NCBI GenBank assembly: GCA_964493715.1
Contig: CAZBPC010000026.1
Coordinates: 1-35,131, forward strand
Reading direction: 5' to 3'
DNA length: 35,131 nucleotides
Origin: an uncultured archaeon
Lineage (GTDB): Archaea; Asgardarchaeota; Lokiarchaeia; Sigyniarchaeales; SOKP01
Shown here: piece after piece, positions 3,902 to 32,141 of the stretch
Layout of the letters: each line of letters begins with the position of its first letter
Numbering within the stretch: position 1 is the first letter of the stretch
The notes under the pieces: model-generated
What the model saw: the letters and a program-made list of their open reading frames with translations, nothing else
Told to the model about the DNA's origin: nothing
The model's database searches: none
Translations under genes and position numbers: made by a program

Positions 3902-4320
3902 ATGAAATTGACAAATACAGTAGCAGATGCTTGTAATCTTTTAAAAAATGCGGAAATGGCCAGGAAGAAAGAAGTGGTCATTAGTCCAGCGAGTAACTTA
4001 ATGCAACGCATTCTTCGTATCTTTCAGCAACACGCTTACATAGGCGAAATTTAATAGGAATTCCTATTAAACGCAAGTTTGAAAGATATGACGATGGACG
4101 GGTAGGTAAGTTCAAAGTGGCTTTAGGAGGAAAAATCAACGAATGCAAGGCCTTAATGAGGCTTAATTATGGTTTTGGAGATTTTGAGAGATTAGAGCGA
4201 ACATTATTACCTGCTCCCGGACTGGGATTAATTATATTAACTACAAATCAGGGTGTAATGACCATGAAAGAAGCCGAAGAAAAGAAGATCGGTGGCATGA
4301 CATTATGCTATGTTTATTAG
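3902..4320 (+). CDS. rps8: 30S ribosomal protein uS8, split by a 29-nt intron: join(3902..4048,4078..4320), 129 aa
   Basis: Exon 1 MKLTNTVADACNLLKNAEMARKKEVVISPASNLMQRILRIFQQHAYIGE, then ATT TAA TAG. Exon 2 in another frame, FERYDDGRVGKFKV...TTNQGVMT...GGMTLCYVY. Joining restores the conserved YIGEFExxDDGR. Confidence 0.93.
4049..4077 (+). other. Putative BHB-type mRNA intron in rps8 (29 nt)
   Basis: Perfect 22-nt palindrome TTTAATAGGAATTCCTATTAAA (4050-4071), bulge AA|A (4047-4049), central helix GGCG/CGCA (3 of 4 pairs), bulge AG|T (4076-4078). The cuts restore the frame. Confidence 0.82.
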
Positions 4321-4339
4321 GAAATTGGAGGTATGAACC

Positions 4340-4918
4340 ATGGTAAAAACAATGTATCTTGAAGAAAAATTAGTGATTCCAGATGGAGTTGAAGTTACTG
4401 CCGATGAGAATCACCACATCACTGTAAAAGGTCCTAATGGCTTGATATCTAAAGACTTTTCTCATGTTAGAGGAATAAAAATAGCAGTTGAAGGAGATTC
4501 AATAAATTTTTCAACTAGTTTCCCTAAAAGAGGAACACTTGCTTTAACTAAAACAATTTACAATATAATAAAAAATTTAATAATTGGTGTCCAAACAAAT
4601 TATAAATATTCATGTAAAATTTGTTATAGCCACTTCCCCTTTAATGCTGAAATCAAACAAAAAAATAAAGAAATTCATTTTGTGAATTTTTTAGGCGAAC
4701 GAGCTCCTAGAGTGACTCAATATTTAGAAAATGTATCTGTTGAAATCCAAGGTGATGATGTAATATTGATAGGTCCAGACAAAGAAACATTGGGTCAAAC
4801 TGCAGCCAATATGCAAAAGAGTTGCCGTATTCGGAAAAAAGACCATCGTGTTTTTCAAGATGGCGTGTATTTGTATAAAAAACAGCTAGGTGACGAAGTT
4901 CTCTGGCAAATAAGATAG
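4340..4918 (+). CDS. rpl6: 50S ribosomal protein uL6
   Basis: VKGPNG, YSHFP, NFLGERAPR and DHRVFQDGVY motifs. Confidence 0.97.
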   Translation: MVKTMYLEEKLVIPDGVEVTADENHHITVKGPNGLISKDFSHVRGIKIAVEGDSINFSTSFPKRGTLALTKTIYNIIKNLIIGVQTNYKYSCKICYSHFPFNAEIKQKNKEIHFVNFLGERAPRVTQYLENVSVEIQGDDVILIGPDKETLGQTAANMQKSCRIRKKDHRVFQDGVYLYKKQLGDEVLWQIR

Positions 4919-4931
4919 GTGATGTGGAATT

Positions 4932-5411
4932 ATGGTAGAAAAAAGACTAATGGATTTAAGAAAAACTATTGCTAAACATCGTCCAAGTTTTCGGCGTGTT
5001 GAATCATGGCGACTCATAAGAGTAAAAGATCCTTGGAGAAAGGCACGAGGCATCGATTCACGAACTCGAATAAAATCTAAATCTGGAGTAAAATCACCTT
5101 CAGTTGGATATCGTGGACCAAAAAAAGTTAGAGGAATGCACCCTTCTGGATATGAAGAGATCAGAATCGTAAGTATTGAAGATCTCAAAAATTTAAATAA
5201 TAAAAAACATGCTTTAAAATTATCTAGTAGGTTGGGAGCGAAAAAAAGATTGTCCATAATTGAGTATGCTCAAAATCGGGGATTTAAAGTATTAAATATT
5301 GGAATGTCTCAAAAGGAATTAGCAGATTTGGAATCAATGTTGGAATCTTCATTCGACGATGAGGAATATCTTGGTGTTGATGACCTAGAAGAAGAATTAA
5401 AGGATGATTAA
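4932..5411 (+). CDS. rpl32e: 50S ribosomal protein eL32 with acidic C-terminal extension
   Basis: RPSFRRVESWR, WRKARGIDS and GYRGPKKVRGMHPSG motifs. Confidence 0.96.
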   Translation: MVEKRLMDLRKTIAKHRPSFRRVESWRLIRVKDPWRKARGIDSRTRIKSKSGVKSPSVGYRGPKKVRGMHPSGYEEIRIVSIEDLKNLNNKKHALKLSSRLGAKKRLSIIEYAQNRGFKVLNIGMSQKELADLESMLESSFDDEEYLGVDDLEEELKDD

Positions 5412-5432
5412 ATAATAAATTAGTGATATATT

Positions 5433-5888
5433 ATGAGTTTAAAAGCCCAAAAAAGAATGGCCGCTCAAATTTTGAAATGTGGTGAGAATCGAGTTTATTT
5501 TGATCCTTACTTAATCGAAGATATACGGATGGCAATCACACGAGAAGACATCCGTAACTTGATAAAAGAAGGTGTCATTCTAAAGAAATATGAAATAGGT
5601 ATCTCAAAACATAGAAAAAATGTCAGACATGAAAGAAAAGTAAAAGGAAGAGCGAGAGGTTTAGGAAAAAGAAAAGGAAAGAAAACTGCTAGAACTCCTA
5701 AGAAGCAGGCCTGGATGAAAAAGATACGTCCTCAAAGAAAAGAGCTTAAAAAATTAAGAGATCGAAAATTAATTACGACAGCAACATATAGAAAACTCTA
5801 CAAGAATGCAAAAGGAGGTATGTTTCATAGTGTTGCCCAAATGCACCGCCATATAAAAGAAAAGGAACTTTTGAAACGAGGGAGATAA
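5433..5888 (+). CDS. rpl19e: 50S ribosomal protein eL19
   Basis: QKRMAAQILKCGENRV, AITREDIR and YRKLYKNAKGG motifs. Confidence 0.97.
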   Translation: MSLKAQKRMAAQILKCGENRVYFDPYLIEDIRMAITREDIRNLIKEGVILKKYEIGISKHRKNVRHERKVKGRARGLGKRKGKKTARTPKKQAWMKKIRPQRKELKKLRDRKLITTATYRKLYKNAKGGMFHSVAQMHRHIKEKELLKRGR

Positions 5889-5890
5889 AA

Positions 5891-6484
5891 TTGGCAAAAG
5901 GACCAAAATACAGAATACCAAATAGAAGAAGAGCTGAAGGTAAGACAAATTATCATAGGAGATTGAGGTTATTAAAATCAGGAAAGTTGAGAACTGTAAT
6001 CAGAGCTTCAAATAATCATATTACCGTTCAAGTTGTCCAATCAAAATTAAAAGGAGACAAAATATTAATTTCAGCTCATTCAAAAGAATTACTAACTAAT
6101 TATGGTTGGAATGCAAATACAGGAAATATTCCAGCTGCCTATCTTACAGGATATCTTGCTGGTATTAGAGCAAAAAAAAATGGCATTGATGAAGCAATCC
6201 TTGATTTGGGGTTATTTTATCATAAAAATCGTGTTCTAGCGGCGTTTAAAGGCGTTCTAAAAGCTGGCATTGAAATTCCCTATAGTGAAGAATTCTTTCC
6301 AGAAAATCTTGAAGAAAGAACTAATGGTTCTCATATAGAAAATTATGCACAATTATTGAAAAAAGAAGAACCTGAGAGATATGAACAAATCTTCTCGGGA
6401 TATTTGAAAAAAAGGAAAATAAATCCTTTGAAAATTAATCAAATTATTACAAATACAATAAAATCAATAGAAAATAAAGCTTAA
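5891..6484 (+). CDS. rpl18: 50S ribosomal protein uL18
   Basis: RRRAEGKTNYHRR and NIPAAYLTGYLAG motifs; TTG start. Confidence 0.96.
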   Translation: MAKGPKYRIPNRRRAEGKTNYHRRLRLLKSGKLRTVIRASNNHITVQVVQSKLKGDKILISAHSKELLTNYGWNANTGNIPAAYLTGYLAGIRAKKNGIDEAILDLGLFYHKNRVLAAFKGVLKAGIEIPYSEEFFPENLEERTNGSHIENYAQLLKKEEPERYEQIFSGYLKKRKINPLKINQIITNTIKSIENKA

Positions 6485-6498
6485 AAAAGTGAAATTTT

Positions 6499-7113
6499 AT
6501 GAGTCGTCCTAGAAATATGGAAGAAGCTTGGGTACCTAAAACGCAATTAGGTGAACTAGTGCAAAGTGGACTAATTACAATTGATAAGATCTTTGAAAAT
6601 AATCTTGTAGTAAAGGAAAAGCAAATTATTGATGTTCTTTTGCCACAATTAAAAGAAGATGTAGTCACCATTAAAATGGTTCAACAAATGACCGCTAGCG
6701 GTCAACGATCTAAATTTAAAGCAGTGGTGCTTATTGGATCTGATGGATTTATCGGAGTTGGTTCTACAAAAAGTAGAGAGGTGGGACCTGCAATTAGGAA
6801 GGCAATCGATAAAGCGAAACTTTCTGTTATACCTATTCTAAGGGGGTGTGGAAGCAAAGAATGCGGTTGCGGGCATACACACAGTATTCCATTTAAAGTA
6901 AAAGGAAAGTGTGGTTCAGTTAAAATTGAATTGATTCCTGCTCCAGCAGGAGTTGGATTAGTATGTGCTGATAAGGTTAAACAACTCCTTCGATTAGCTG
7001 GAATTGAAGATATATGGAGTAAAACATATGGTGATACAAGAACAAGTGAAAATCTCGTTAAGGCGACCTTCAATGCTTTGAAACAAGCTCATAAGTTCAA
7101 TTTTAATATATAA
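6499..7113 (+). CDS. rps5: 30S ribosomal protein uS5
   Basis: WVPKTQLG, RGCGSKECGCG and LIPAPAGVGL motifs. Confidence 0.97.
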   Translation: MSRPRNMEEAWVPKTQLGELVQSGLITIDKIFENNLVVKEKQIIDVLLPQLKEDVVTIKMVQQMTASGQRSKFKAVVLIGSDGFIGVGSTKSREVGPAIRKAIDKAKLSVIPILRGCGSKECGCGHTHSIPFKVKGKCGSVKIELIPAPAGVGLVCADKVKQLLRLAGIEDIWSKTYGDTRTSENLVKATFNALKQAHKFNFNI

Positions 7114-7120
7114 TATAAGA

Positions 7121-7663
7121 GTGGTAGTCATGATGGCTGAACAAAAAATTGTAACAAAAAAAAAAAGTAAAAAAGTGGTTAAACCACCAGTTCTCTATTT
7201 CGCTATACGAGTTAGAGGGGCCCCAGGAATGAAAGGAAAAATTCTAGATACAATTAAGATGCTAAGAATGCATAAAGTAAATCATGGTGTCTTGTTATGG
7301 GGGGAAAAAAGTGTAATAGGGATGCTTATAAAATGTAAGGATTATATTGCATATGGTGAAATTGATGAAAAAACCTTAGTTAGGCTTTTACGAGTTAGAG
7401 GTAGGATAGAGGGAAATACTCCACTCACGGATGAGCACGTTAAGAATTTAACTAAGTATGCAAACATAAAGGAATTAGCAAAAGCTCTATTAATAGGAGA
7501 AATACAATATAAAGAAAAGGATATCTACAAAATTAAGCCTGTTTTTCGAATGCACCCCCCTCAGAAAGGATTTAGGGGATCAATCAAAAAACATTATAAT
7601 GAAGGCGGTACCTTAGGCTATGTAGAGAATTACATTAATGAATTAATTCAAAAAATGATATAA
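7121..7663 (+). CDS. rpl30: 50S ribosomal protein uL30 (long archaeal form)
   Basis: AIRVRG, DYIAYGE and PVFRMHPPQKG motifs. The true start may be ATG 7130 or 7133. Confidence 0.95.
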   Translation: MVVMMAEQKIVTKKKSKKVVKPPVLYFAIRVRGAPGMKGKILDTIKMLRMHKVNHGVLLWGEKSVIGMLIKCKDYIAYGEIDEKTLVRLLRVRGRIEGNTPLTDEHVKNLTKYANIKELAKALLIGEIQYKEKDIYKIKPVFRMHPPQKGFRGSIKKHYNEGGTLGYVENYINELIQKMI

Positions 7664-7680
7664 TGTGGTGAAGCATAAAC

Positions 7681-8163
7681 ATGAGAAAATATCCTAGTAA
7701 AATAAGAAAGAAAAGAGGTACTCGCGTTATCGGTTATGGACGAGTCGGTCAACATCGAAAAGCAGGTCAGAGGGCTGGAAAAGGAAAAACTACGGGATGG
7801 AAAAAGAGCAATAAATCTTATTTCTTAAAACAGCAAGAGTTAGGCTTTCCAGATCCAGATTGGGCAAAACTCAACCCAAAAAATAAAAAGGGATTCAAAC
7901 GTCCACAAGATATAAATCGAATATATCATGTAAATACAATGAACATTAAGGATTTAGATTTTAACATTGAAAAATATTCTCAAAGAACTAAAGCTTCAAA
8001 ATCAGGAAGCACATACACCATTAATTTAAACGATCTAAACATCCAGAAAATATTAGGTCGTGGCGAAATTTCTAAACCCATAAACGTGACCGTGAATCAA
8101 GCGTCAAAACGAGCAATTGAAAAAATTGAAGCCGCTGGTGGAAAAGTATCTCTCAGTTCCTAA
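7681..8163 (+). CDS. rpl15: 50S ribosomal protein uL15
   Basis: GYGRVGQHRKAG, KILGRG and ASKRAIEKIEAAGG motifs. Confidence 0.96.
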   Translation: MRKYPSKIRKKRGTRVIGYGRVGQHRKAGQRAGKGKTTGWKKSNKSYFLKQQELGFPDPDWAKLNPKNKKGFKRPQDINRIYHVNTMNIKDLDFNIEKYSQRTKASKSGSTYTINLNDLNIQKILGRGEISKPINVTVNQASKRAIEKIEAAGGKVSLSS

Positions 8164-8168
8164 TCACA

Positions 8169-8190
8169 AATTGTTAAAAAATTAACAATT
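8169..8190. terminator. Possible bidirectional terminator between convergent genes
   Basis: Inverted repeat AATTGTTAA-AAAA-TTAACAATT followed by T-rich sequence. Confidence 0.4.
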
Positions 8191-8218
8191 TTCTACTTTA
8201 TTAATTAAAATGAATTTT

Positions 8219-8869
8219 TCAATCCAATAATTTTATTATTAATTGGATTAATCCTGGAAGAATAAAAATAAACCCCAATACGTTCCCGATAAGGTGTATT
8301 GTAGTAAATATTATTCCCGAAAGGTAAGTAGTCAAGAAATATTCAACTGATTGAGAAAATAACATGGCTCCAAAAAATGTGCTCAAAATATCATAAAAAA
8401 ACGTGATTAACGCTCCAGTCAATCCTAATATTACCAAAATAGGAAATATATAGAGATCGTCTTTTGGTTTAAAATACTCACGTTTATTAAAATATTGTCT
8501 TAAAAAACCACCTAATAATCCTGTCAAGGAGTAATGCGCAATCTGGTATAGGAAAAGTGGAAGCGCCACTACTGAAGAACCTATTGGATTAAAGAAGGTA
8601 AATATCATGGAACTTAATAAACCAACGATCAATCCTTCCTTTTTACCCAATATGAATCCAGATAAGAAGACGGTTAGGGTAAAGATTTCAATGTTAGGAA
8701 TAAATGCGAGCATGTAGCCAAACACTACTGCTAATGCCGCAAAAGTACTCAAGATCGCAATTTTAAACGTGGGTTTTTCAAGCCAAGTGGAAATATTCTC
8801 TCTCTCGGTTGCCTTTTTAAATATGGAGACTTCCATCTCACCTTTAAGATCTGAATTTTCTAATTCCAT
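8219..8869 (-). CDS. ECF transporter S component (possibly cobalamin/CbrT-like)
   Basis: About 6 TM helices, IPNIE motif and F-x-x-G-x-x-x-G-x-x-x-G pattern typical of S components. Confidence 0.75.
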   Translation of the reverse strand: MELENSDLKGEMEVSIFKKATERENISTWLEKPTFKIAILSTFAALAVVFGYMLAFIPNIEIFTLTVFLSGFILGKKEGLIVGLLSSMIFTFFNPIGSSVVALPLFLYQIAHYSLTGLLGGFLRQYFNKREYFKPKDDLYIFPILVILGLTGALITFFYDILSTFFGAMLFSQSVEYFLTTYLSGIIFTTIHLIGNVLGFIFILPGLIQLIIKLLD

Positions 8870-8878
8870 CGCTGAGAA

Positions 8879-8908
8879 CTCATATTAGTATTATTTAAGT
8901 AATATGAG
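8879..8908. promoter_or_regulatory. Perfect 9-bp inverted repeat in a divergent promoter region (candidate operator)
   Basis: CTCATATTA-N12-TAATATGAG, about 10 nt upstream of the S-component start. Confidence 0.4.
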
Positions 8909-8990
8909 ATAGCATAAAAAGATTAGGATAAGTTTCCCAATCTTTATATTTTTTCCTAAATATTATTATAATAATTAAAAAAAATTTATT

Positions 8991-10403
8991 ATGCCTCAAA
9001 AAATTATGAGGAAAAAAGCGATAGTGCTTGGAATTTTATGTTCTTTCTTTATTATGCAAGGAATTTTCATAGTATCCATTCCAACTGTGAAAGCGGATGT
9101 AACAATTCCCCCCAATTTCTATTCAGAATTAGACACAGATTCAGTTTATGTCTATAATGTAACCAAATTTGGCGGGGATCTAAGCTGGTTAGGCTTTGAT
9201 TGGGTATCAAAATATAATACTACGACTAATGTAGGTGGTCAAATATCCATTAATTTTACAGGTTTTTATGATAAAGATCCAGCTGACGTTTATAATGCTT
9301 TCGGAAGTCCCATGCCCTATATGGATATTGAATTTATTGAAAATCAAGGAGGTGTTTTGAATTCTAATCACACCTTTTACAATGTATCTAATGGAGAGGT
9401 TGCATTCAACATGGCATTAGGTTATAACTCTTTTCAGTCGGGGTTCCTCATCTCTATTGATAATTTAACTTATCTGAAAGAATTAGCTCTTGCTCAAGAT
9501 AGTGGATACATGCCTGGAGATATAAATGTCGAAGAATCATCTAATTTTATTTCCTTCGATTTTAAACAAGATTCGAAGTTCCAAAATACAACGTTGGTAT
9601 ATGAAAGAAAAAGTGGTTTATTAGTTTGGGCAAGAACTAAACTGGCTCCAATAACAGATCCGATTGGATACACACTTGAATTCTTCTTGACAAACTATTC
9701 TCTTGATTTAAATTCTGCTTATGCTTACAACGTTTCAAGATTTGGAGAAACGGCGTTTTGGAATGATTGGAATGATAATTTTATAGATACTTGGACTACA
9801 AATCCAGGGGGATTAGTAATAATAAACTTTACAGACTATTATTATAAGGATCCGAATGATTCAAGTACTTCTGATGCCTTTCCATCAGATATAAAGAGAG
9901 CTTGGTTAGACCTTGAAGTATATTATAATGGATCTTTTGGTCTAATTGGACCTCAAATTAGTTTTACAAACATATCTAATAGAGAAGCTGCTATTCAAAT
10001 GAGGATGGGATATGGGGATTTGCAATCAGGATTTTTGATTCCAATGATAAACAACATCACGTTCATAAAAGAAAAAGCACTCAATGCTGCAAATCCGGGA
10101 GAAGTTATTTTTGCAGAAACCGAACTAACCATTAGTATCTTCTATGATCAGATAGGTGGGTTTCAAAAAACCCACTTCATTTATGAAAAGAAAACGGGAC
10201 TCTTACAATGGATTGATACAGATGTGGGAAGTTTTGGTTTAGAAATGACATTAATAGGTTTTTCTCCACCCTTGACAACAAATCCACCTCAGCCTCCTAA
10301 TGGTTCAATTCCATCCTTTATCCCTATTATTTTAGGAATCGGGATGATAATAACATCAATATTAATAATCAAGAAGGTTAAAAGACAAATTAAAAAGATT
10401 TAA
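8991..10403 (+). CDS. Secreted surface (glyco)protein with two ~190-aa internal repeats and a C-terminal TM anchor (Loki-CTERM-like)
   Basis: Signal peptide ending VKA. Duplicated YxYNVxxFG...TTNxGG...INFT...SN.E...GY...QSGFLI...YExKxGLL. Pro-rich linker, IPSF-TM-basic tail, many N-x-S/T sequons. Confidence 0.75.
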   Translation: MPQKIMRKKAIVLGILCSFFIMQGIFIVSIPTVKADVTIPPNFYSELDTDSVYVYNVTKFGGDLSWLGFDWVSKYNTTTNVGGQISINFTGFYDKDPADVYNAFGSPMPYMDIEFIENQGGVLNSNHTFYNVSNGEVAFNMALGYNSFQSGFLISIDNLTYLKELALAQDSGYMPGDINVEESSNFISFDFKQDSKFQNTTLVYERKSGLLVWARTKLAPITDPIGYTLEFFLTNYSLDLNSAYAYNVSRFGETAFWNDWNDNFIDTWTTNPGGLVIINFTDYYYKDPNDSSTSDAFPSDIKRAWLDLEVYYNGSFGLIGPQISFTNISNREAAIQMRMGYGDLQSGFLIPMINNITFIKEKALNAANPGEVIFAETELTISIFYDQIGGFQKTHFIYEKKTGLLQWIDTDVGSFGLEMTLIGFSPPLTTNPPQPPNGSIPSFIPIILGIGMIITSILIIKKVKRQIKKI

Positions 10404-10447
10404 GTACATTTTTCTATTTTTTTTAATTTTTTATACGTGAGAGATTT

Positions 10448-10831
10448 ATGGAACAAAAGAAAAAATACATCTTAATTGCAATAATTGGTGTAACTTTATT
10501 CTCATTATTAATAATAATTAATTTCAATTTATATAAAACTCCTGACAAACTCGAAGTGGTGGAAAATATAACACTTCACGTGGATTATAATAACGGTACG
10601 ATTAAAACCCGAACAAATTTTACACTCAGTGAAGGTAAAACAACCGCTTTTGATGCTTTGAATCAGTGGTGTGAAATTCAATATGCTGTCAATGGAAATC
10701 GCTATTTTGTAATATCGATAGATGGAATTGGAGAAAATTGGCTCTACTTCGTTAATGGTATCGCTCCAGGAGAAAGCTCAAATCTTTATGCTTTAAACAA
10801 TGGAGATCTTGTTGAGTGGCGACATATTTAA
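10448..10831 (+). CDS. Membrane-anchored DUF4430 (transcobalamin-like beta domain) protein
   Basis: N-terminal TM; TAFDAL...FVISIDG...WLYFVNG...YALNNGDLVEW. Confidence 0.8.
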   Translation: MEQKKKYILIAIIGVTLFSLLIIINFNLYKTPDKLEVVENITLHVDYNNGTIKTRTNFTLSEGKTTAFDALNQWCEIQYAVNGNRYFVISIDGIGENWLYFVNGIAPGESSNLYALNNGDLVEWRHI

Positions 10832-10839
10832 AAAAAGAA

Positions 10840-11265
10840 TTATCCTTCTCTCTGTATATGTTGAAGAATTGGTTCCATTTCTTTAAATGCCTTTCGGATC
10901 TTGTGGAAGTAATAGCCCAGCTTGTAGCCCTTCTTACAATTCGTAAATAACATGAAATCATTTTCAGCAGATCCTACTAAAATAATGGTATAGCCCTTTA
11001 TGCCTCTAATTACAATTTCTCTCAATTCTCCCTGACCGAGTCCCATGCTAATCTTTTCTCCTAATGATATTAGAGTAGCAGGGCTTGCACTGTATATATC
11101 TGCCACCACATCGGCAGTTTCAGAGCTTGCTATCCTTAATCCTGTTTTTGAAACTAAAGCAGTCCCTTCCAAATCAGTAGAACTTTCTAAGTTCTCTAAC
11201 TTACGCATTAAATCCGCGAGAATTTCAGGATCAATGTTTATCTCTGATGGTTGAAAATCTTCCAT
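10840..11265 (-). CDS. Roadblock/LC7 domain protein
   Basis: GTALVSKTGLRIAS...LGEKISMGLGQGELREIVIRGIKGY. Confidence 0.85.
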   Translation of the reverse strand: MEDFQPSEINIDPEILADLMRKLENLESSTDLEGTALVSKTGLRIASSETADVVADIYSASPATLISLGEKISMGLGQGELREIVIRGIKGYTIILVGSAENDFMLFTNCKKGYKLGYYFHKIRKAFKEMEPILQHIQREG

Positions 11266-15796: not shown

Positions 15797-15889
15797 GGCC
15801 CTTGACGGTTGGGGTGGTCTCTGACGCTGGGCTTCAAACCCAGTTATCCTGCGGAGGGATAGCGGTTCGATTCCGCTCGAGGGCCGCCA
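15797..15889 (+). tRNA. selC: tRNA-Sec (anticodon UCA), 9/4 fold, encoded CCA
   Basis: 9-bp acceptor GGCCCTTGA/TCGAGGGCC, 7-bp D stem GTTGGGG/CTCTGAC, anticodon arm GCTGGG-CTTCAAA-CCCAGT, long variable arm, 4-bp T stem GCGG/CCGC, GCCA end. Confidence 0.97.
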
Positions 15890-18126: not shown

Positions 18127-18302
18127 TGGGCCATCGGGGATTTTCGTGCTCAACTTTATTATTTAAGTCACTTCGAACCCCGGCTCTCAGGCTTTTACTG
18201 TTATGGACAATTTTTCAAATGTATGTCCATAGGCCATTTATAAGACCTGCGCTTTTTGACCAAGCTCGTAAAACCTCGTTAACCAGGCTGAGCTAATGGC
18301 CC
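18127..18302 (-). tRNA. tRNA-Ile(UAU) with three introns (18255-18279, 18193-18237, 18141-18171)
   Basis: Spliced 75-nt cloverleaf GGGCCAT TA GCTC AGCCTGGTTA AAGC G CAGGT CT TAT AA GCCTG AGAGC CGGGG TTCGAAT CCCCG ATGGCCC A. Each insert has BHB-type geometry; TATA (TTTATAAT) at 18331-18338. Confidence 0.88.
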
Positions 18303-22308: not shown

Positions 22309-23375
22309 ACGAAAATAAAATTATAAAGTTAGATGGTTCTATTGGAGAAGGCGGGGGTTCAATTATTCGGTTAAGTGCAAGTTTTTCTACATTGTTTAAC
22401 CAACCAATTCACATTTCCAATATACGTGCTAATCGATCAAAACCGGGTTTGCGTCAACAACATTTATTGGGACTCAAGACTCTGGCAGAATTAACAAATA
22501 GCAATTTGAGTTCATGTGAAGTCGGTTCTAGTGAAATTACATTGATACCAGGAGGATCAATACAAAAATCAGAAATTGACGTTAACGTCAATACTGCTGC
22601 AAGTCTAGGATTGCTACTCCAACCAATTCAAATAGCTAGTCTAAGCATGAAGAAATCTCAAAGACTAATGGTCAGACTTCATGGTGGTGGGACATTTGGG
22701 AAATGGGCACCGAGTTTGAATTATCTTAAAGACGTCACTTATAGCGTGTTTAAAAAAGCGGGACTCAATATAGATATTAATATTAATCGTCATGGTTTTT
22801 ATCCAAAAGGAGGCGCTAAAGTTCACTGCTCAATATCTATGGGAACTGATTTACTTAAGCCGATTAATATGGTGAGTTTAGGTAATATTGAACAAATAAA
22901 TGGAGAAATAATACTATCAAATCATTTTCAAAATAAAAATAACATTGGAGAAAGAATTAAAAACACGATCATTGGAGAAATAAAAAGATACCACCATAAC
23001 ATTAACGCTAATATAAATTGTAGATATGTACCGACCCATAGTCAAGGATTAGGTCTCCATCTATGGGCAAATTCTAATACAAGTGCAATAATATCAACTG
23101 GAACTTTACTAGGAGAAAAAGGAATAACTTCTGAACAATTGGGTAAGCTAGCTGTAAAAGAATTGACAGAATATATAAAAAATGATATACCTGTTGATAA
23201 ATATTTGAGTGATCAACTAATTCCCTTGATGGTTTACTTAAAAAGCTCCTCAATAATAAAGGTACTTGAGATCACAAGTCATACCCAGACAAATTTAGAT
23301 TTAATCAAGAAGTTCTCTCAGAGAAATTATAAAATCAAAAAAGAACAAGTTGGATATTATATTGAATTTGATTGA
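22305..23375 (+). CDS. rtcA: RNA 3'-terminal phosphate cyclase
   Basis: DGSIGEGGG, IRANRSKPGLRQQH, GFYPKGG, DKYLSDQL and catalytic SHTQTN motifs. Confidence 0.94.
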   Translation: MNENKIIKLDGSIGEGGGSIIRLSASFSTLFNQPIHISNIRANRSKPGLRQQHLLGLKTLAELTNSNLSSCEVGSSEITLIPGGSIQKSEIDVNVNTAASLGLLLQPIQIASLSMKKSQRLMVRLHGGGTFGKWAPSLNYLKDVTYSVFKKAGLNIDININRHGFYPKGGAKVHCSISMGTDLLKPINMVSLGNIEQINGEIILSNHFQNKNNIGERIKNTIIGEIKRYHHNINANINCRYVPTHSQGLGLHLWANSNTSAIISTGTLLGEKGITSEQLGKLAVKELTEYIKNDIPVDKYLSDQLIPLMVYLKSSSIIKVLEITSHTQTNLDLIKKFSQRNYKIKKEQVGYYIEFD

Positions 23376-25012: not shown

Positions 25013-25102
25013 TATGAAATCAAAAAATTAATTAAGTTTTCCCTCTTTAAAATCATATCATCTTAAATTTTAAAATCTCAAAATCAATAAAAGGTTAGCC
25101 AA

Positions 25103-25381
25103 TTGCCAAGACCCGCTTTAAGATCAAGAGCTCAAAAACGTAAAAAATTGAAAACACCTGGTCATCAACAAGTTATTCATTATTGGAGAAGAAATCCATC
25201 CAGAGCTCAATGTTCAATATGCAAGAAACCCCTTCAATCTATCCCACGATTACGTCCAGCAAAAATGAAAAAGACACATAAAACAGCTAGATCGGTTAAT
25301 AGATTAGAAAGTGGACGATTCTGCGCCAAATGCCTGCAGAAACAGATTAAGCATTCAGTTTGGCAATCTCCCGATTTATAA
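25103..25381 (+). CDS. rpl34e: 50S ribosomal protein eL34
   Basis: MPRPALRSR, KTPG, CSIC and CAKC motifs; TTG start. Confidence 0.93.
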   Translation: MPRPALRSRAQKRKKLKTPGHQQVIHYWRRNPSRAQCSICKKPLQSIPRLRPAKMKKTHKTARSVNRLESGRFCAKCLQKQIKHSVWQSPDL

Positions 25382-25433
25382 AAATTTTGTTTGTTTAAAT
25401 TAACTAAAATAAAGCTTAACATGCTCTTAAAAC

Positions 25434-25964
25434 ATGATTATATCAATTTCAGGTCTCCACGGAACTGGAAAATCTACCGTAGGAAAACTAGTTGCAAAAG
25501 CATTAGGCTTAAATTATTACTCAACGGGTCAAGCATTTCGAGATCTTGCTAAGGAAAGGGGAATGAGCCTCCAAAATTTTACGCGTTACGTTGAGGACCA
25601 TCCTGATATTGATAAAAAATTAGATGAAAAAATAATTAAAATCGCTGAAAAAGATAATATATTAATTGATAGCCAATTAAGCGGTCATATTCTGAGAAAT
25701 GTTGCTGACTTCAAAATACATTTAACTTGTTCACTTGAAACAAGAGTTAGGCGAATAGCTGAAAGAGATCAAGCTTCTTATGAATTGAAAATGAAAGAAA
25801 CGCAAATTCGGGAATTATCTGAGTTGGAGCGTTTCAAGAAGTTGTATGGTATTCATTTAGATGATCTTGAAGAAATCAGTCGTATCCACGATTTGGTGTT
25901 AGACACTGAAGGACTTTCAATTGATGATATTGTAGAATTAATCATTTCAAAATTATGCAAATAA
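25434..25964 (+). CDS. cmk: Cytidylate kinase (archaeal type)
   Basis: ISGLHGTGKST P-loop, STGQAFR and RVRRIAER; canonical position between L34e and L14e. Confidence 0.92.
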   Translation: MIISISGLHGTGKSTVGKLVAKALGLNYYSTGQAFRDLAKERGMSLQNFTRYVEDHPDIDKKLDEKIIKIAEKDNILIDSQLSGHILRNVADFKIHLTCSLETRVRRIAERDQASYELKMKETQIRELSELERFKKLYGIHLDDLEEISRIHDLVLDTEGLSIDDIVELIISKLCK

Positions 25965-26020
25965 AAATTCTTTTTATGAAAAAAGCATAAAAAATATAAT
26001 TTTAGAATTATTTCATAATT

Positions 26021-26085
26021 TACTTATAGTAGTTTATTTTAACTGAGAAAAATCTAATTCTCAGTAATAATAGACGTTATTAGTA
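26021..26085 (+). other. Canonical BHB motif with predicted 31-nt intron (26041-26071) in the rpl14e 5' UTR
   Basis: Inner stem ACTGAGAA/TTCTCAGT, bulge TT|A, central helix TATT/AATA, bulge AT|A, outer helix GTT/GAC extended by TACTTATAGT/GTTATTAGTA. Confidence 0.65.
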
Positions 26086-26100
26086 ATTTGGTGACAAATT

Positions 26101-26373
26101 ATGAGCGTGTATGATATTGGAAGAGTTTGTGTAAAAACAATGGGAAGAGAAGCGGGAAATTACTGCGTTATAGTTGATATCATAGATAAAAACTATGTTA
26201 TCATTGACGGTTTAAAAGTACGAAGAAGACGAGCTAATTTCAATCATGTGGAACCTACTGCAGATATGGTGGAAATTAAAAAGGGAGCTGATCATAAAAC
26301 CGTTGAAGCTGCTATTAAAAAAGCAAAATTAGACAAAAAAATGAAGGAAACGTTCTCAATCCCAATAAAGTAA
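26101..26373 (+). CDS. rpl14e: 50S ribosomal protein eL14
   Basis: IGRVCVKTMGREAG and VRRRRANFNHVEP motifs; RBS GGTGA at 26090-26094. Confidence 0.96.
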   Translation: MSVYDIGRVCVKTMGREAGNYCVIVDIIDKNYVIIDGLKVRRRRANFNHVEPTADMVEIKKGADHKTVEAAIKKAKLDKKMKETFSIPIK

Positions 26374-26375
26374 AT

Positions 26376-26407
26376 AATCCGTATTTTTATGGATTCCATT
26401 TTTTTTT
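26376..26407 (+). terminator. Hairpin plus oligo-T after rpl14e
   Basis: AATCCGTA-TTTT-TATGGATT followed by T9, abutting the tRNA-Ser 5' end. Confidence 0.4.
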
Positions 26408-26521
26408 GCAACGGTAGCCTAGCCTGGTAAGACGCTGGATTGGAATTTTTGGATAAACCATCCAATTGATCATACATCCAGTGTGAGTGATCACTCGGGG
26501 GTTCGAATCCCTCCCGTTGCG
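26408..26521 (+). tRNA. tRNA-Ser(GGA) with a 30-nt intron at 37/38 (26446-26475)
   Basis: Acceptor GCAACGG/CCGTTGC, G73, anticodon arm CTGGA-TTGGAA|A-TCCAG, variable arm GTGA/TCAC, T arm GGGGG-TTCGAAT-CCCTC, intron hairpin TTGGAT/ATCCAA. Confidence 0.9.
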
Positions 26522-26660
26522 TTTTGTTCTGCCCTCTAACTCATAGTAAATGCATCATTCATTCAATCATTTTACTATGTGAAATAAAGGTATATCCCTT
26601 TATTATATAAGGCAAAATTTTTAAAATTTTGAATCAATATTTAAAATATAAAAAATATTA

Positions 26661-27032
26661 ATGAGAATCATGAAGAAAATTATTGGAATTCCATCTAATG
26701 GACCAAATTTAAGTGATAATATCTCTGAACATTTTGGTCATTGCAATTATTTTGTAGGAATTAATATCAATGAAGATAACTCCTTTGAAAAGTTATTTGA
26801 TATTCAGAATGAGGGTCATAATGGATGCATGGAACCTGTCATGAAATTAAAAGATAATGAAGTCACTGATGTGATATTAAGTGGCATCGGTGGTAGACCA
26901 TATATGGGATTTTTGCAATTAGGAATACCTATGAGTCAAGGTGTTCCTGGAAAAAGCATTGAAGAAAACGTTAAATTATATCTTAAAGGAGAATTAAAAG
27001 AAATGAAAGGTTCAAGCTGTTCTGATCACTAA
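26661..27032 (+). CDS. NifB/NifX-family (dinitrogenase FeMo-cofactor-binding domain) protein
   Basis: ISEHFGHCNYF, VILSGIGGRP and a C-terminal C/H motif. Confidence 0.85.
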   Translation: MRIMKKIIGIPSNGPNLSDNISEHFGHCNYFVGININEDNSFEKLFDIQNEGHNGCMEPVMKLKDNEVTDVILSGIGGRPYMGFLQLGIPMSQGVPGKSIEENVKLYLKGELKEMKGSSCSDH

Positions 27033-27089
27033 TCACAAATCCTATTCATAGATAGTTAAGAAATAGAAAATTTTATTTTAAATTATTGA

Positions 27090-27764
27090 TCAAACATCGG
27101 GAAATTCTAATGCTTTTGCTTTAGATCCTCCCATCATTTGACTCATTCCACCACCTGATGCTTGTGTTTGCAATCCAAAAAATCGTTGAACTAATGCACT
27201 CATTCCAAAACTGCATAGATAATACCAACCAGTGAAATTTATCCAACCATATGTATTTGGAATTGTCCTTGCGAACCCATAAACTAGTTCTGTCCATGGA
27301 TAAGGGACATTAGTGAATGCGGCAAGCATTTGACCGATAAAAGGAACATCATTTGCATTCATTGGGGATAAAGCTACGGGATTATTTAAGAAAATACCAC
27401 GAACTATTATGAAAATAACAACCATGGGGACGAATGTTATGCATGAAGGTTTTAATCTTTGCAGAGACATGCGTTGCTTGGATTGTTTGAACATTTCATC
27501 CTTCCTTTCCCACCTTTTACGTAATTTTCTGTATTTTTCAGGGTCAGTTTCAGCAAATTCAATAATTTTTGCTTTTTCTTCATCATGACCCTTTTGCGCT
27601 ACTTGTTTTCTTTGCATCTCATCCACGTCAGTAAGCCATTTTGAAAGTGCAGCAGTAATCAATGAAGTCATAACAGATAATAATAAAATGAATATCATCG
27701 AACCCGGCGGATAACTCATCCACTCTAAAAATGGGTTTGTATCTTGTAAAAGAGTAAGTATCAT
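27090..27764 (-). CDS. DUF106 / EMC3-TMCO1 (Oxa1 superfamily) membrane insertase
   Basis: TM1, coiled coil, KPSCITFVP and GWYYLCSF; directly downstream of secY. Confidence 0.88.
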   Translation of the reverse strand: MILTLLQDTNPFLEWMSYPPGSMIFILLLSVMTSLITAALSKWLTDVDEMQRKQVAQKGHDEEKAKIIEFAETDPEKYRKLRKRWERKDEMFKQSKQRMSLQRLKPSCITFVPMVVIFIIVRGIFLNNPVALSPMNANDVPFIGQMLAAFTNVPYPWTELVYGFARTIPNTYGWINFTGWYYLCSFGMSALVQRFFGLQTQASGGGMSQMMGGSKAKALEFPDV

Positions 27765-27843
27765 TATTAAGATAGAATAAGAGTAAGTACATTTTAAATT
27801 TTTCAGATTCTAATCGTTTTTTTCTCTGAGACTAAAATATTAT

Positions 27844-29295
27844 TTAATCTAATCCCAGCATCGAACGCATCCCAGGATACTGATTAGCAGCAACTTCTTT
27901 GCTGATAGATTCAGCATATTGATGGATAATGCCAATAGAGATGAGGAGTCCCGTACCTGAAGTTAAAGCGCCCAAAGTATCGGCGAAAAAGCTCATGACC
28001 GCAATTATAATGCCGTTTATTATTATAAGCGTTGGAATGTACCTTTTTAAGATTCGCTCGATAATTCGTTCTGATGATCTAAAGCCCGGTACTTGCATTC
28101 CGGAGTCGAGAATTTGCTGAGCGATATCTCTGGGGGCGAGACCTGAGACTTCGACCCATAGACGGCCGAGCAATACGCATAAGACAATGAAAATTCCGAG
28201 ATATATCACTGCTCTTTGGGGGGCATTTATAAAATCACCTATTCCTCGAGGAGGCGTGAGGAGCCATAAAATTCCTCCTGTTGGAACGAGATAATTTCCT
28301 TGAGCTCCCGCCGATACGGGCGCAGCAAATGTACCAATTAGATTTAACCAAAATTCTAGTTCGGGAATGCTCCGTAAACTAGAATCTGGTCCTGCTATTA
28401 TTTGGCCGAAGAATAGTAAATTGGCATAGAGGGCATTGACTAATATAACAGGAATATTAGAAACATATAATAGTTTCATGGGATATTTTCCTTTAAACCC
28501 TCTATGTCCACTATAAGCTAGCGGGATCTCAATGCGAGTAGATTCAAACCAAACGACAATAGCAAAAATAACTAATGTCGTGATCCCTCCAACGATAGAA
28601 GGCGCGTTATCTCGATATATGAGATCAGCAGTATTAATATTGGGGTCTGCAAATGATTGTATGAATGATATTAATATTCCACGAGGAGTACCTCCACCAC
28701 CTAAAAAACTAAAGGTGTTCCAAAAGATCTGACCTGCAACACCAGCAGCTATGAATAATGAGACACCACTTCCTATCCCCCATCCTTTTTGAAGGAGTTC
28801 ATCTAATAGTAAGATCACAAGTCCTGCAAAAATCAACTGAAGGAAAATAATCGCTGAAGCAGCGATTGATAAATCTTTACCAAAAGCTCCTCCAATAATG
28901 TAAGCAACACAATTAAAGACTGTTAGTATCATGGCCAGGACTTTTTGAGAGCCACTAAACATTGCTCTATCGTATGGATCTCTCATATCCACCTTAATAA
29001 TTTTAGAACCCATTAATAATTGCATTATAAGACCAGCGGTTACAATAGGACCAATCCCCAATTCAGTAAGAGTTCCTCTATGACTAGCGAGGATTACTCG
29101 AAGCCAATAATAATAGTCTGTTGTATTTGATATATTTACTCCATAAAGAGGGATATTTGATAAAACGATATAAATAACTAATACAACCGCAGTCCAGATG
29201 AATTTTTCTTTGAAGGTTACTTCCCTTTGTGGTTGTTTGATTTCAGGAAGAATTCGAACAAACGGGCTGAAGAATTTCAGGAATTTTCCAGTCAT
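27844..29295 (-). CDS. secY: Protein translocase subunit SecY/Sec61-alpha
   Basis: GTLTELGIGPIVTAG, DELLQKGWGIGSGVSLFI, KLLYVSNIPVI and RYIP motifs. Confidence 0.97.
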   Translation of the reverse strand: MTGKFLKFFSPFVRILPEIKQPQREVTFKEKFIWTAVVLVIYIVLSNIPLYGVNISNTTDYYYWLRVILASHRGTLTELGIGPIVTAGLIMQLLMGSKIIKVDMRDPYDRAMFSGSQKVLAMILTVFNCVAYIIGGAFGKDLSIAASAIIFLQLIFAGLVILLLDELLQKGWGIGSGVSLFIAAGVAGQIFWNTFSFLGGGGTPRGILISFIQSFADPNINTADLIYRDNAPSIVGGITTLVIFAIVVWFESTRIEIPLAYSGHRGFKGKYPMKLLYVSNIPVILVNALYANLLFFGQIIAGPDSSLRSIPELEFWLNLIGTFAAPVSAGAQGNYLVPTGGILWLLTPPRGIGDFINAPQRAVIYLGIFIVLCVLLGRLWVEVSGLAPRDIAQQILDSGMQVPGFRSSERIIERILKRYIPTLIIINGIIIAVMSFFADTLGALTSGTGLLISIGIIHQYAESISKEVAANQYPGMRSMLGLD

Positions 29296-29534
29296 GATCA
29301 ATCAGTTTTTGTATATTTATGTTGCTACTAAAATCATATATATTTTTAGAAAAACTGAAATTAAAAAAAAACTTTGTTATTTACCACTTTTTGATGATAA
29401 AATTATTGAATTGTTGGATGATTTGCTTGCGATAAAATGTTAAAAAAAAAAATAAATAAAAAAATATTTTTTGAATAATTCATGCAAAAAAATGCATTTC
29501 TAAGAAGAGAGAGGTTTTATCCTCTTTTATTTGT

Positions 29535-29831
29535 TTAAAACAAACTTCCTATCCCTGTAGGCTCTTCTTCTTCTTCCTCTTCTTCTTTCTTTTCTTCCTT
29601 AACTTCCGCTGTAGCGGGTGCGGCACCACCAACATGAGCTGCCATTACAGGAGCTGCAGCAGCAGAACTAATAATATCATCAATATTTGCTTCTTTTAGC
29701 CCGGCGACGAGCTTAGTAATCTGAGAATTATCAATATTTGCTCCAGCTGCTTTTAGTACTTTTTCAATAGCACTATCCGTGATACTTTTACCTGCTTTAT
29801 GTAGAAGCAAGGCTGCGTATATACTTTCCAT
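29535..29831 (-). CDS. rpl12: 50S ribosomal stalk protein P1 (aL12)
   Basis: MESIYAALLLH, Ala-rich hinge and acidic tail ending GIGSLF. Confidence 0.96.
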   Translation of the reverse strand: MESIYAALLLHKAGKSITDSAIEKVLKAAGANIDNSQITKLVAGLKEANIDDIISSAAAAPVMAAHVGGAAPATAEVKEEKKEEEEEEEEPTGIGSLF

Positions 29832-29903
29832 TTTACAAATCCTCTTATAAGTTTATTATATTTCAAATGTTAATCAACTATTTTTTCAAAAAAATTATTT
29901 TTA

Positions 29904-30872
29904 TTAACCAAAAAGTCCTCCTATGCCAACTTCTTCATCTTCTTCCTCCTCTTTATCATCTTCAGGAGGCTTGGAAGAACTTCCACTCGTGGGAACCGAG
30001 ATTCCTCCACCTAAAAGTAATGAGTTTAAGATTGTGGCATTTGAAACTGCTTTTTGGATATATTCATCTCTCATGTCTTGAATGTAAACGGGGGAATCAA
30101 ATAAGATCCCGAGTGCTTCTCTATAAGCTTTTTGAATCATTGGTTTAATGGTTTCTTTATCTACAACGCCAAGTTCGATTGCTAATTGTTGAGCCGCAAA
30201 ATAGGCAGATGCTAAATCTTGTTTGAATCCTTCAAGATCCATGTAAATCACGTCGGCTGAGTAGATTTCTCCATCACTCCACGCGTAATGAATTTTAATC
30301 AAGGATTCTATAGGATTTACACCCAACTTCTTTAAGACTGCAGCTTGTTTTACATTCACAAAATCTCCAGCTTTGTGGGTCCTTGTAGGCTCACGTATCC
30401 AAATTGTATCATGTTGAATCTGGGTGGGTAATCGCAACGTCATGTTAAGTTCACTAATGACTTGCCCAGTTGGTAGACCAGTATCTCCAGCAGGAACCCA
30501 AATATCAATCGGAGTTATATCATCTGGTTTAGCTGGAACCATCCATAAATTATCATTAAAAATCTTCTTTAATTCAAAAACATCAATGTCTGTAAAGCAC
30601 AACGCTGATTGTCCGGGAAGGTTATCAACAAGATAATCCAAATTCTTCTTCGCTGATTCATTTTTGAACCGTTCAATAGCTCTAATTTGCAAATTTTTCT
30701 TTGACATTTTAATAATTGCTTTTCCACGTAATAACTTTCGAATGTCTTGAACTTGTTTGTCATTCAAGCTAGCAACTTTCAGCACCATTACATATTTGTA
30801 TTTATTGAATAGTTCTATCAGATAATCAACTTCATCTAATTTCCATTGAGGGATATGCTTTTTTCCAATCAT
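29904..30872 (-). CDS. rpl10: 50S ribosomal protein uL10 (P0)
   Basis: IPQWK, VPAGDTG, AAVLKKLGVNP and acidic tail GIGGLFG. Confidence 0.96.
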   Translation of the reverse strand: MIGKKHIPQWKLDEVDYLIELFNKYKYVMVLKVASLNDKQVQDIRKLLRGKAIIKMSKKNLQIRAIERFKNESAKKNLDYLVDNLPGQSALCFTDIDVFELKKIFNDNLWMVPAKPDDITPIDIWVPAGDTGLPTGQVISELNMTLRLPTQIQHDTIWIREPTRTHKAGDFVNVKQAAVLKKLGVNPIESLIKIHYAWSDGEIYSADVIYMDLEGFKQDLASAYFAAQQLAIELGVVDKETIKPMIQKAYREALGILFDSPVYIQDMRDEYIQKAVSNATILNSLLLGGGISVPTSGSSSKPPEDDKEEEEDEEVGIGGLFG

Positions 30873-30876
30873 TTAA

Positions 30877-31605
30877 TCACACCTTTACGCTTTTTAAGAA
30901 TTGTTCATCAATTTTTACAGGGCGTCCCATCGTAGTTTTTAAATACATTGATTTGATATTATTATATTTATGGGGTAGTTGATCTGCTACATAATTCACA
31001 ACCGTCTTAAGATTTTCGAATAGTTTCTCTTGTTCCATTGATTTCTTCCCGATTTTAACTTGAACTGTTGGTTGTTTTTTTAACTGAATTCGAATGACTT
31101 TTAAATAACGTTCGATGGTCATTTTAAGATCTTCAGCATTTGAGATGATTCCGTATCCACTTGGAAATGGTTTTGGCATTTTTCCCAAGGGTCCTAAAAA
31201 TCGAGCTAAGTATCGGGCAACATTTGGCATCATTTTATCTTCTACAATGAAAAAGTCATAGTTTTTTACAAATTTTTTCTTTTGTTTCTTTTCTTCATTG
31301 TTCATTTTAACTAATCCATCAGAATCAATTGTATCTAAACCTAAATTCTTTGCTTCCATTAGAACTTCATCAGAAGCAATAACGCATACGTTTGGTTTAT
31401 CCATAAGCAGAATATCATAAGGAAGAATAATTTCCTTATCAATTCTCTGCTTTGGGTCACTTAAGTTTATATCCTTGAGGTTGATTACAAAATCAAGAGT
31501 CTCGTCAAATTTCCGATTTTTATCTTTAAAACCCTCTTTTTTAAAAGCCGAAAACTCAATAGCAGCACTAATTGATTTTTTCAACAATTTATCGTCTACT
31601 TTCAT
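30877..31605 (-). CDS. rpl1: 50S ribosomal protein uL1
   Basis: RKFDETLDFVINLK, LGPLGKMPKP and YLKTTMG motifs. Confidence 0.96.
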   Translation of the reverse strand: MKVDDKLLKKSISAAIEFSAFKKEGFKDKNRKFDETLDFVINLKDINLSDPKQRIDKEIILPYDILLMDKPNVCVIASDEVLMEAKNLGLDTIDSDGLVKMNNEEKKQKKKFVKNYDFFIVEDKMMPNVARYLARFLGPLGKMPKPFPSGYGIISNAEDLKMTIERYLKVIRIQLKKQPTVQVKIGKKSMEQEKLFENLKTVVNYVADQLPHKYNNIKSMYLKTTMGRPVKIDEQFLKSVKV

Positions 31606-31608
31606 TGT

Positions 31609-32141
31609 TTATATCTCCCCCGTAATTCTATCATCATAATCTCCATTATCAATACGTTCTTGAATCTTACGTGGATCTTCCCCTTCCACTGTTACCCCTA
31701 TTGATAAAGCAGTCCCCAATACAGATTTAATGGCTGCTTTGTACGTTCGGTTTAAGAAAATCTCTTTTTTTGCTTCGACGACGTTCATGATTTGATCCAA
31801 TTTCATATCGCCAATCTTGTTAGATGAGCAAGAATCACTCCCCTTTTGAACTCCAATCTCCTTTAAAAGTAACGAGGCAGTCGAGGGAGTCTCTATGAAG
31901 ATTTCAAACTTTTTAGTCTCAGGATCACATACAATTCTAACTGGTACAGTTAAACCTTTGAATAACATTGTCTTTTCGTTTACTGTGTCGACCACGTCTT
32001 TTATGTTTATACCCGTGGGTCCAACGGCAGGTCCTTTACCTTTTATTATTAAAACGATTTGTTTTAGGAAATAGGCGGCCCGCCTGATGCACTTCCACCA
32101 GTCACGAGAGCTTTTATGGTTATTTTTCCTTTTTCACTCAC
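31609..32141 (-). CDS. rpl11: 50S ribosomal protein uL11, split by a 35-nt intron: complement(join(31609..32035,32071..32141)), 165 aa
   Basis: GTG start at 32141 with GGTGAG RBS. Exon 1 MSEKGKITIKALVTGGSASGGPP(I), then TCC TAA. Exon 2 in another frame, GPAVGPTGINIKDVVDTVNEKT... Joining restores the conserved GPPxGPAxGPxG. Confidence 0.93.
32036..32070 (-). other. Putative BHB-type mRNA intron in rpl11 (35 nt)
   Basis: Central helix GCCU/AGGU, bulges AU|U and AA|A, exon-exon helix GGCGGGCC/GG(A)CCUGCC, internal hairpin UAAAAC/GUUUUA. Confidence 0.85.

Follow-up and report, generated by a model that had tools for sequence, protein, structure and literature searches.

The closest described counterpart of the elements reported here is the intron in cbf5 of Crenarchaeota, which the accessible part of its report presents as the only confirmed archaeal pre-mRNA intron, others being merely predicted (PMC2738675). 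A 2020 paper, in the portion available, describes cbf5 as the sole additional case of a bulge-helix-bulge (BHB) intron (PMC7714728). In Asgard archaea, tRNA introns are abundant and have been gained repeatedly, by a route of arrival that is unknown according to the available text of a preprint (bioRxiv 10.64898/2026.10.13.758758). We analyzed a 35,131-nucleotide (nt) stretch of DNA from an uncultured archaeon (the window, that is, this whole stretch; contig C26 of the draft genome G000), in which the ribosomal protein genes rps8 and rpl11 are each interrupted by a short insert. The nearest public relatives are metagenome-assembled genomes (MAGs) labelled Promethearchaeota (Asgard archaea), in agreement with the Asgard-like host proposed in a preliminary description of this DNA. 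The two inserts are very probably archaeal BHB introns in pre-mRNA, which would be removed by the tRNA splicing endonuclease EndA and the ligase RtcB.

As far as the available part of the cbf5 report permits comparison, the inserts resemble that intron in being short BHB or relaxed-BHB elements in a protein-coding gene, in the association with a heterotetrameric EndA of broad specificity, and in their patchy distribution and frameshift-like appearance (PMC2738675). However, cbf5 is one crenarchaeal gene, whereas here at least five genes of an Asgard family are affected, with several sites each and up to two introns per gene; cbf5 splicing was shown experimentally, whereas in the Asgard cases it is predicted. 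The intron of Haloferax volcanii HVO_1309 is a substrate that EndA cuts in an mRNA and not in tRNA or rRNA, as is proposed for the present inserts, but to judge from the accessible text it lies in the 5′ untranslated region (UTR), is 46 nt long and was supported by circRNA-seq and in vitro cleavage (PMC7714728), and an analogous claim for rpl14e in the window was unsupported by comparison. The Asgard tRNA-intron census concerns the same lineage and motif, and a window tRNA-Ile gene with three introns fits it; the census covers tRNA genes only, and its available text contains 0 occurrences of 'mRNA' and 'ribosomal protein' (bioRxiv 10.64898/2026.10.13.758758). A literature search, with supplements and subscription journals outside its reach, returned two confirmed cases from archaeal mRNAs, cbf5 and one haloarchaeal UTR, and nothing on BHB introns in protein genes of Asgard archaea.

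Two more distant systems also invite comparison. The mRNAs of HAC1 and XBP1 contain a very small intron (26 nt in XBP1) that changes the frame and whose splicing gates protein output, and in metazoa RtcB joins the exons. The Asgard inserts share with them the small size, the change of frame, the predicted endonuclease cut and the predicted joining by RtcB, but the HAC1/XBP1 nuclease is IRE1, acting on twin stem-loops rather than EndA on a BHB, and the system is a regulated stress switch confined to one mRNA. In translational bypassing (T4 gene 60, mitochondrial byps), the RNA stays intact and matched take-off and landing codons are needed. Bypassing and the present genes have in common that essential coding sequence is interrupted by short inserts containing a stop and a hairpin, but the codon matching and the intact RNA do not fit here.

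The two interrupted genes are laid out as follows.

3902–4048, plus strand: rps8 exon 1; ATG start, 49 codons; Pfam Ribosomal_S8 positions 2–43 (E = 8.9e-09).
4049–4077, plus strand: putative rps8 intron, 29 nt, relaxed BHB (HBh′); fold z-score −3.19, with same-site inserts in relatives.
4078–4320, plus strand: rps8 exon 2; 80 codons plus stop; Pfam Ribosomal_S8 positions 93–126 (E = 9.3e-11), and tblastn.
32071–32141, minus strand: rpl11 exon 1; GTG start at 32141, 23 codons plus 2 nt.
32036–32070, minus strand: putative rpl11 intron, 35 nt, relaxed BHB (hBH); the minimum free energy (MFE) fold shows a 4-bp helix and a 3-nt 3′ bulge.
31609–32035, minus strand: rpl11 exon 2; 1 nt plus 141 codons plus stop; Pfam Ribosomal_L11_N (17–58) and Ribosomal_L11.

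Both inserts, and a third element in the rpl14e 5′ UTR that is treated below, were found where the preliminary description had placed them, and both shift the frame and bring in a stop within two codons, as it had stated: the unspliced rps8 frame reads ATT TAA after codon 49, and the rpl11 insert interrupts a codon and meets TAA two codons beyond the split codon. When 4049–4077 was taken out in silico a 129-residue S8 was obtained, and removal of 32070–32036 gave a 165-residue L11; the two rps8 exons fall on opposite ends of the Ribosomal_S8 model. A cut after the second bulge nucleotide, the rule put forward at the outset, fits both ends of both inserts and restores the full-length proteins. 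In rps8 the central helix has 3/4 pairs, the bulges are AA|A and AG|T, and a 9-bp inner hairpin (h′) follows; in rpl11 the central helix GCCT:AGGT is complete (4/4), the bulges are AT|T and AA|A, and there is an exon-exon outer helix. The bulges and cuts are thus as originally claimed, while both motifs proved to be relaxed forms, HBh′ in rps8 and hBH in rpl11. The draft genome (3.68 Mb, 160 contigs, 31% G+C) is rated 100% complete with an estimated contamination of ~4%, and tblastn found no second copy of rps8 or rpl11 in it.

Comparison with orthologues, which the preliminary description had called for, showed that some relatives carry an insert at the same site or a neighbouring one while others have none there (other G numbers denote relatives' genomes and L numbers compared sequences; the MAG records L144–L155, which probably overlap the G genomes, were left out of independent counts). 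Within the genus, rps8 is interrupted in 4/25 genomes, namely at the window's site in G000, G023 and G004 and elsewhere in G003, whose different 29-nt insert lies 6 nt upstream of that site; the nearest relatives G006, G001 and G022 have rps8 without an insert. A class-wide search of 159 genomes gave an rps8 match in 155, and the 150 matches listed were screened for short upstream open frames, a screen blind to in-frame introns free of stops and to introns within exon 2. Nine such frames were found among the 150, and an insert was confirmed by reading each. Site 1, that of the window, is occupied in G000, G023, G004 and G071, and site 2 in G003, G060, G074, G057 and G155; among the matches listed, all nine belong to the window's family, in which they span six genera, and 0/20 from other families carry an insert.

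In rpl11, three intron sites lie within 17 codons across the genus: site A, after PPI, is occupied in four genus genomes; site B, inside the Ser codon of GGS and before AS, in five; and site C, after TGI, in eight. At least one insert is present in 13/19 assessable genus genomes and none in the other six, four genomes have two introns, and 0/10 loci examined from other families have any. Coding insert lengths range from 27 to 38 nt. On a tree built from the neighbouring ribosomal proteins L5, L6 and L32e (529 columns, one linked locus), the intron states are patchy. The sister genomes G015 and G014 carry site B alone and site C alone, respectively; the sisters G001 and G022 differ in both the rpl11-A and the rtcB introns; and the rps8 site-1 intron is found in G000, in G023 and in the distant G004. 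This pattern requires many precise losses, repeated gains or transfer, among which a tree from a single linked locus cannot decide.

The Gly-Pro codons that flank rpl11 site A (GGNCC ... GGNCC; codons 20–28 in L031–L050) form its outer helix. Among the sequences inspected, the wobble positions of this helix are paired in 6/7 that bear the intron versus 2/4 that lack it.

Similar inserts interrupt other genes.

G000 contig C2, 12164–12136, minus strand, outside the window: 29-nt rtcB insert, between PGGVGY and DINCG.
G000 contig C18, 23294–23541, outside the window: histone-fold gene (CBFD_NFYB_HMF) with a 29-nt BHB-type insert at 23314–23342, after codon 7.
G022 contig C5 (L102), ~3370–3460: thiolase-like gene with inserts of ~34 and ~31 nt separated by 11 nt; both have a long hairpin and a central helix of 3/4.

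A Pfam search of G000 for RtcB gave a single, split locus, with model positions 1–47 and 48–426 separated by 29 nt. Removal of these 29 nt joins PGGVGY to DINCG (by reading), and Pfam coverage is continuous over the exons. In this insert the central helix is perfect (TTGG:CCAA), the bulges read AT|A and AG|A, and the inner helix spans 9 bp. The insert is common to G000 and G001 only, and is absent in 22 other genus genomes and in other families. The last two genes came from a census in which 1.19 Mb of G022 (contigs C1–C106, first 20 kb each) were compared with G000 by blastn; the alignments covered 837 kb at ≥78% identity and contained 140 gap events of 13–120 nt. The census recovered the rpl11 and rtcB introns and added the histone-fold intron in G000 and the two thiolase introns in G022. 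The histone-fold gene yields a full-length product after in-silico removal of its insert, which is absent in the G022 orthologue, and the G000 orthologue of the thiolase gene (C4:98959–100218) is uninterrupted. These counts correspond to ~3 coding introns per genome in roughly a quarter of the genome, with targets beyond translation genes. A blastn-short search of the genome with the four G000 introns matched only themselves, so that no repeat family is apparent. The additional rpl11 and rps8 sites in relatives, together with rtcB, the histone-fold gene and the thiolase gene, support a wider intron occupancy than the preliminary description had claimed.

Several further candidates were set aside. 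A 32-nt event (L120) was intergenic and not a coding intron, a 30-nt event (L095) was an in-frame indel without stops, and many AT-rich intergenic indels had BHB scores by chance. A de novo genome scan that combined the BHB motif with restoration of an open reading frame (ORF) returned 98,644 candidates, which formed 28,303 groups; even where the locus was known, the top-scoring member of the group was incorrect, and the scan was too noisy to use.

Nine independent sites were scored for geometry (rps8 1 and 2, rpl11 A, B and C, rtcB, the histone-fold gene, and thiolase 1 and 2), with some helix counts taken by eye from printed sequences. One junction rule holds at 9/9 sites and at both junctions: a 4-nt helix strand, two bulge nucleotides, then the cut. 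The 4 nt that end 2 nt before the 5′ junction pair with the 4 nt that end 2 nt before the 3′ junction, leaving 3-nt bulges. The central helix is 4/4 at 6/9 sites and 3/4 at the remaining three (partly a by-eye reading), against a 4/4 rate of 4.5% at random genomic positions when equivalent junction placements are allowed [P(≥6 of 9) = 6e-7]. Six of the nine sites were found blind to the motif, namely rps8 site 2, rpl11 B and C, both thiolase sites and rtcB, and of these four are 4/4. For rpl11 site C, the helix was taken at alignment-derived junctions in 8/12 rows and was 4/4 in each except L045, which was read by eye. A flanking helix, either h or h′, accompanies the central one in rps8 (h′, 9 bp), rpl11 site A (outer helix of 5–6 positions), rpl11 site B (h′, 3–10 bp) and rtcB (h′, 9 bp). 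For rps8, rpl11 and rtcB, the MFE folds reproduce both the central helix and the bulges, and the fold z-scores are −3.2 for rps8, −2.0 for rpl11, −1.9 for rtcB and −1.9 for the histone-fold gene.

Sequence changes among relatives follow this pairing. At rpl11 site B the outermost central-helix pair is A-T, T-G or T-A, and inner helices of differing sequence still pair (GAAAA:TTTTC versus GTT:AAC). At rps8 site 1, G023 and G004 have C-G in place of a T-A pair, and G071 forms a G-C pair where G000 has the G.A mismatch. At site 2 of the same gene, unrelated inner helices of up to 9 bp occur in five genera (read by eye); in G060, the exon has changed synonymously from GCC to GCT and the intron correspondingly from G to A, turning a C-G pair into T-A. 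The exons are under purifying selection: for L11, G000 versus G001 gave a nonsynonymous rate (dN) of 0.054 and a synonymous rate (dS) of 0.385, and for S8 pN was 0.09 versus a pS of 0.79. Only 1/35 positions of the rpl11 intron differ between G000 and G001, indicating that the intron itself is constrained.

The window also contains two intron-bearing tRNA genes.

18127–18302, minus strand: tRNA-Ile(UAU) with three introns at 18279–18255, 18237–18193 and 18171–18141 (25, 45 and 31 nt).
26407–26522, plus strand: tRNA-Ser(GGA) with a 30-nt intron at 26446–26475 (position 37/38), called by ARAGORN with intron search.

ARAGORN thus bore out the four tRNA introns (25, 45, 31 and 30 nt) of the preliminary description, the three of tRNA-Ile after in-silico removal. 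These three sit in the D-arm, anticodon and T-arm regions, and a clean tRNA-Ile(UAU) was called only once all of them had been removed at the BHB-scored positions; default ARAGORN and Rfam runs on the window returned tRNA-Sec and tRNA-Ser only and missed tRNA-Ile. In tRNA-Ser, the TTGG strand of the anticodon loop pairs with CCAA of the intron, which lies 10 nt, not 2, before the 3′ cut; this motif is not a canonical BHB but a bulge-helix-loop. In every coding intron inspected, both 3-nt bulges begin with A (A-N|N), and the 5′ bulge of the 25-nt tRNA-Ile intron begins with T. The A-first pattern may be specific to mRNA sites.

A different picture emerged for the third element of the preliminary description, which had been read as a spliced 31-nt intron in the 5′ leader of rpl14e.

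26032–26075, plus strand: conserved stem-loop in the rpl14e 5′ leader (claimed 31-nt intron, 26041–26071); z-score −4.15.
26101–26373, plus strand: rpl14e coding sequence, uninterrupted, downstream of the leader element.

In G000 the element can be drawn either way, as a BHB or as a plain hairpin. Read by eye, the complete BHB register (TATT:AATA 4/4, 8-bp inner helix, 3-bp outer helix) is found only in G000, G001 and G022, and excision of a BHB intron from a leader has a documented precedent in Haloferax, as described in the accessible part of that report (PMC7714728). Across the 21 distinct genus sequences, however, pairing favours the plain hairpin: the four pairs specific to it are formed in 19, 19, 20 and 19 of 21 (77/84 cells), with C-G to U-A covariation, and its whole outer helix is paired in 89.1% of cells, whereas the four central-helix pairs specific to the BHB are formed in 18, 12, 18 and 8 of 21 (56/84 cells, 66.7%), so that the BHB register is not conserved among relatives. 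The stem-loop is present at the same place in 21/21 of these sequences, with similar hairpins in other families, whereas the coding introns are sporadic; one relative's hairpin has no internal loop at all, and the MFE fold is a symmetric plain hairpin with a 3×3 internal loop. Rfam at E up to 1 gave no match in the rpl14e UTR or in the inserts. Excision from the leader is consequently unlikely, and the element is probably not an intron but a regulatory or stabilising stem-loop. The original proposal is therefore supported for the coding inserts, which behave as BHB introns in a genome with EndA and RtcB genes, but unsupported for the rpl14e UTR.

The enzymes in question are encoded in the genome. 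G000 has two tRNA_int_endo genes, of 208 residues (C5) and 206 residues (C58), each with N- and C-terminal domains. The top PDB matches of the 208-residue subunit are 3p1z_B, 3ajv_B and 2cv8_A, which we take to be crenarchaeal enzymes; that of the 206-residue subunit is 1a79_A. According to the available part of one study, Asgard EndA is an (alpha-beta)2-type enzyme whose L1 loop confers broad specificity, and relaxed motifs require such an EndA (PMC5829648). By analogy with this literature, G000 would encode an endonuclease of broad specificity, able to cut relaxed motifs, together with the RtcB ligase.

In the mechanism that we propose, the transcript would fold so that 4 exon nucleotides shortly upstream of the 5′ junction pair with 4 intron nucleotides shortly upstream of the 3′ junction, leaving a 3-nt bulge on each strand. 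A two-subunit EndA of crenarchaeal type would cut after the second nucleotide of each bulge, and RtcB would join the exons, freeing the short intron, probably as a circle. Because translation of the unspliced message stops within two codons, S8, L11, the histone-fold protein and RtcB would be made only when EndA and RtcB are active. The introns would form a population with fast turnover, occupying different sites in different species of this Promethearchaeota family, much like the abundant tRNA introns there.

Several observations weigh against this mechanism. All of the BHBs are relaxed, and the full strict hBHBh′ form occurs at no site with scored flanking helices. At rps8 site 1 the central helix forms 3/4 pairs, the mismatch being G.A, and there is a weak outer helix or none; rpl11 site A has no flush inner helix, and the G016 intron at that site has a central helix of only 3/4. 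The z-scores are modest for rpl11, rtcB and the histone-fold gene, and the MFE fold of the last does not show the BHB register. In addition, rps8 site 1, rpl11 A and the histone-fold gene were picked up partly through BHB scoring. The exon-2 frame is open backwards through both inserts (107 residues in rps8 and 174 in rpl11), so that the frames by themselves are compatible with a frameshift at these two sites. Finally, cleavage and ligation in vivo, circularisation and any regulatory role are inferred; two sediment metatranscriptomes contained 0.07 and 0.06 of the sampled words and were uninformative on splicing.

Three other explanations were weighed. The inserts could be removed at the RNA level by other means than EndA and RtcB, such as another endonuclease-ligase pair or a small self-cleaving element. 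The relaxed motifs leave room for this, as does the link of EndA to the sites, which is drawn from sequence. Nevertheless, the cut positions follow the EndA rule at 9/9 sites, and Rfam detected no ribozyme or intron family in the window, its matches there being tRNAs only, which makes this alternative improbable. Group I and group II introns can be dismissed, since inserts of 27–38 nt fall far below a ribozyme core of hundreds of nucleotides.

Ribosomal recoding, in which the insert is kept in the mRNA and passed by a programmed −1/+1 frameshift or by bypassing (hopping), would accommodate the open exon-2 frames as well as the stable hairpin directly after the stop. However, insert lengths at a single site differ modulo 3 (28, 32, 37 and 38 nt at rpl11 B; 30, 35 and 36 nt at A), so that a single direction of shift cannot work, and the 30- and 36-nt inserts hold in-frame stops. 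In rpl11 the insert falls inside a codon, no take-off and landing codons that match were seen in the rps8 and rpl11 sequences, and changes in the inserts track base pairing rather than codons. We consider recoding highly improbable. Even less credence attaches to broken genes or assembly artefacts, with the proteins supplied by other copies or absent: the genome is a draft in many contigs with some estimated contamination, but homologous same-site inserts with compensatory changes recur in separately assembled genomes, no second copy was found, the exons are under strong purifying selection and the genes are essential.

How the EndA/RtcB-dependent introns came to be distributed as they are is a more tentative matter. 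They could be a mobile, rapidly gained and lost population that invades coding and tRNA genes alike, repeatedly at hot spots and including the sole ligase gene, a reading to which we give somewhat less than even weight. The hot spots within it (two rps8 sites 6 nt apart across six genera, and three rpl11 sites in 17 codons) are held with the same reserve.

The window as a whole comprises the large ribosomal-protein operon, the L11-L1-L10-L12 operon, cmk-rpl14e, a tRNA-Sec gene and the two intron-bearing tRNAs. The tRNA-Sec gene (15797–15889, plus strand; Rfam, 59 bits) implies the use of selenocysteine by this archaeon.

The proposed mechanism bears on annotation as well as on biology. In a mechanical ORF list, rpl11 was a single ORF of 128 residues and rps8 was divided between two, of 52 and 67 residues; gene callers would likewise report intron-bearing genes as truncated or split, and such mis-called genes would skew marker-gene sets and completeness estimates for Asgard genomes. 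In the archaeal group closest to eukaryotes, several essential genes appear to be broken in this way, with many sites affected and a fast turnover. The mechanism raises testable questions about the colonisation of coding sequence by protein-dependent introns, about the gating of ribosomal, chromatin and ligase proteins by EndA and RtcB, and about precise intron loss. With a BHB insert in the sole rtcB gene, the RtcB ligase would be required to mature its own mRNA, and the rtcB intron, if our interpretation is true, would constitute a self-dependent splicing loop. If the introns are indeed a mobile population, the family would offer a living prokaryotic case, near the root of the eukaryotes, in which introns spliced by proteins spread through mRNAs before spliceosomal introns or beside them.

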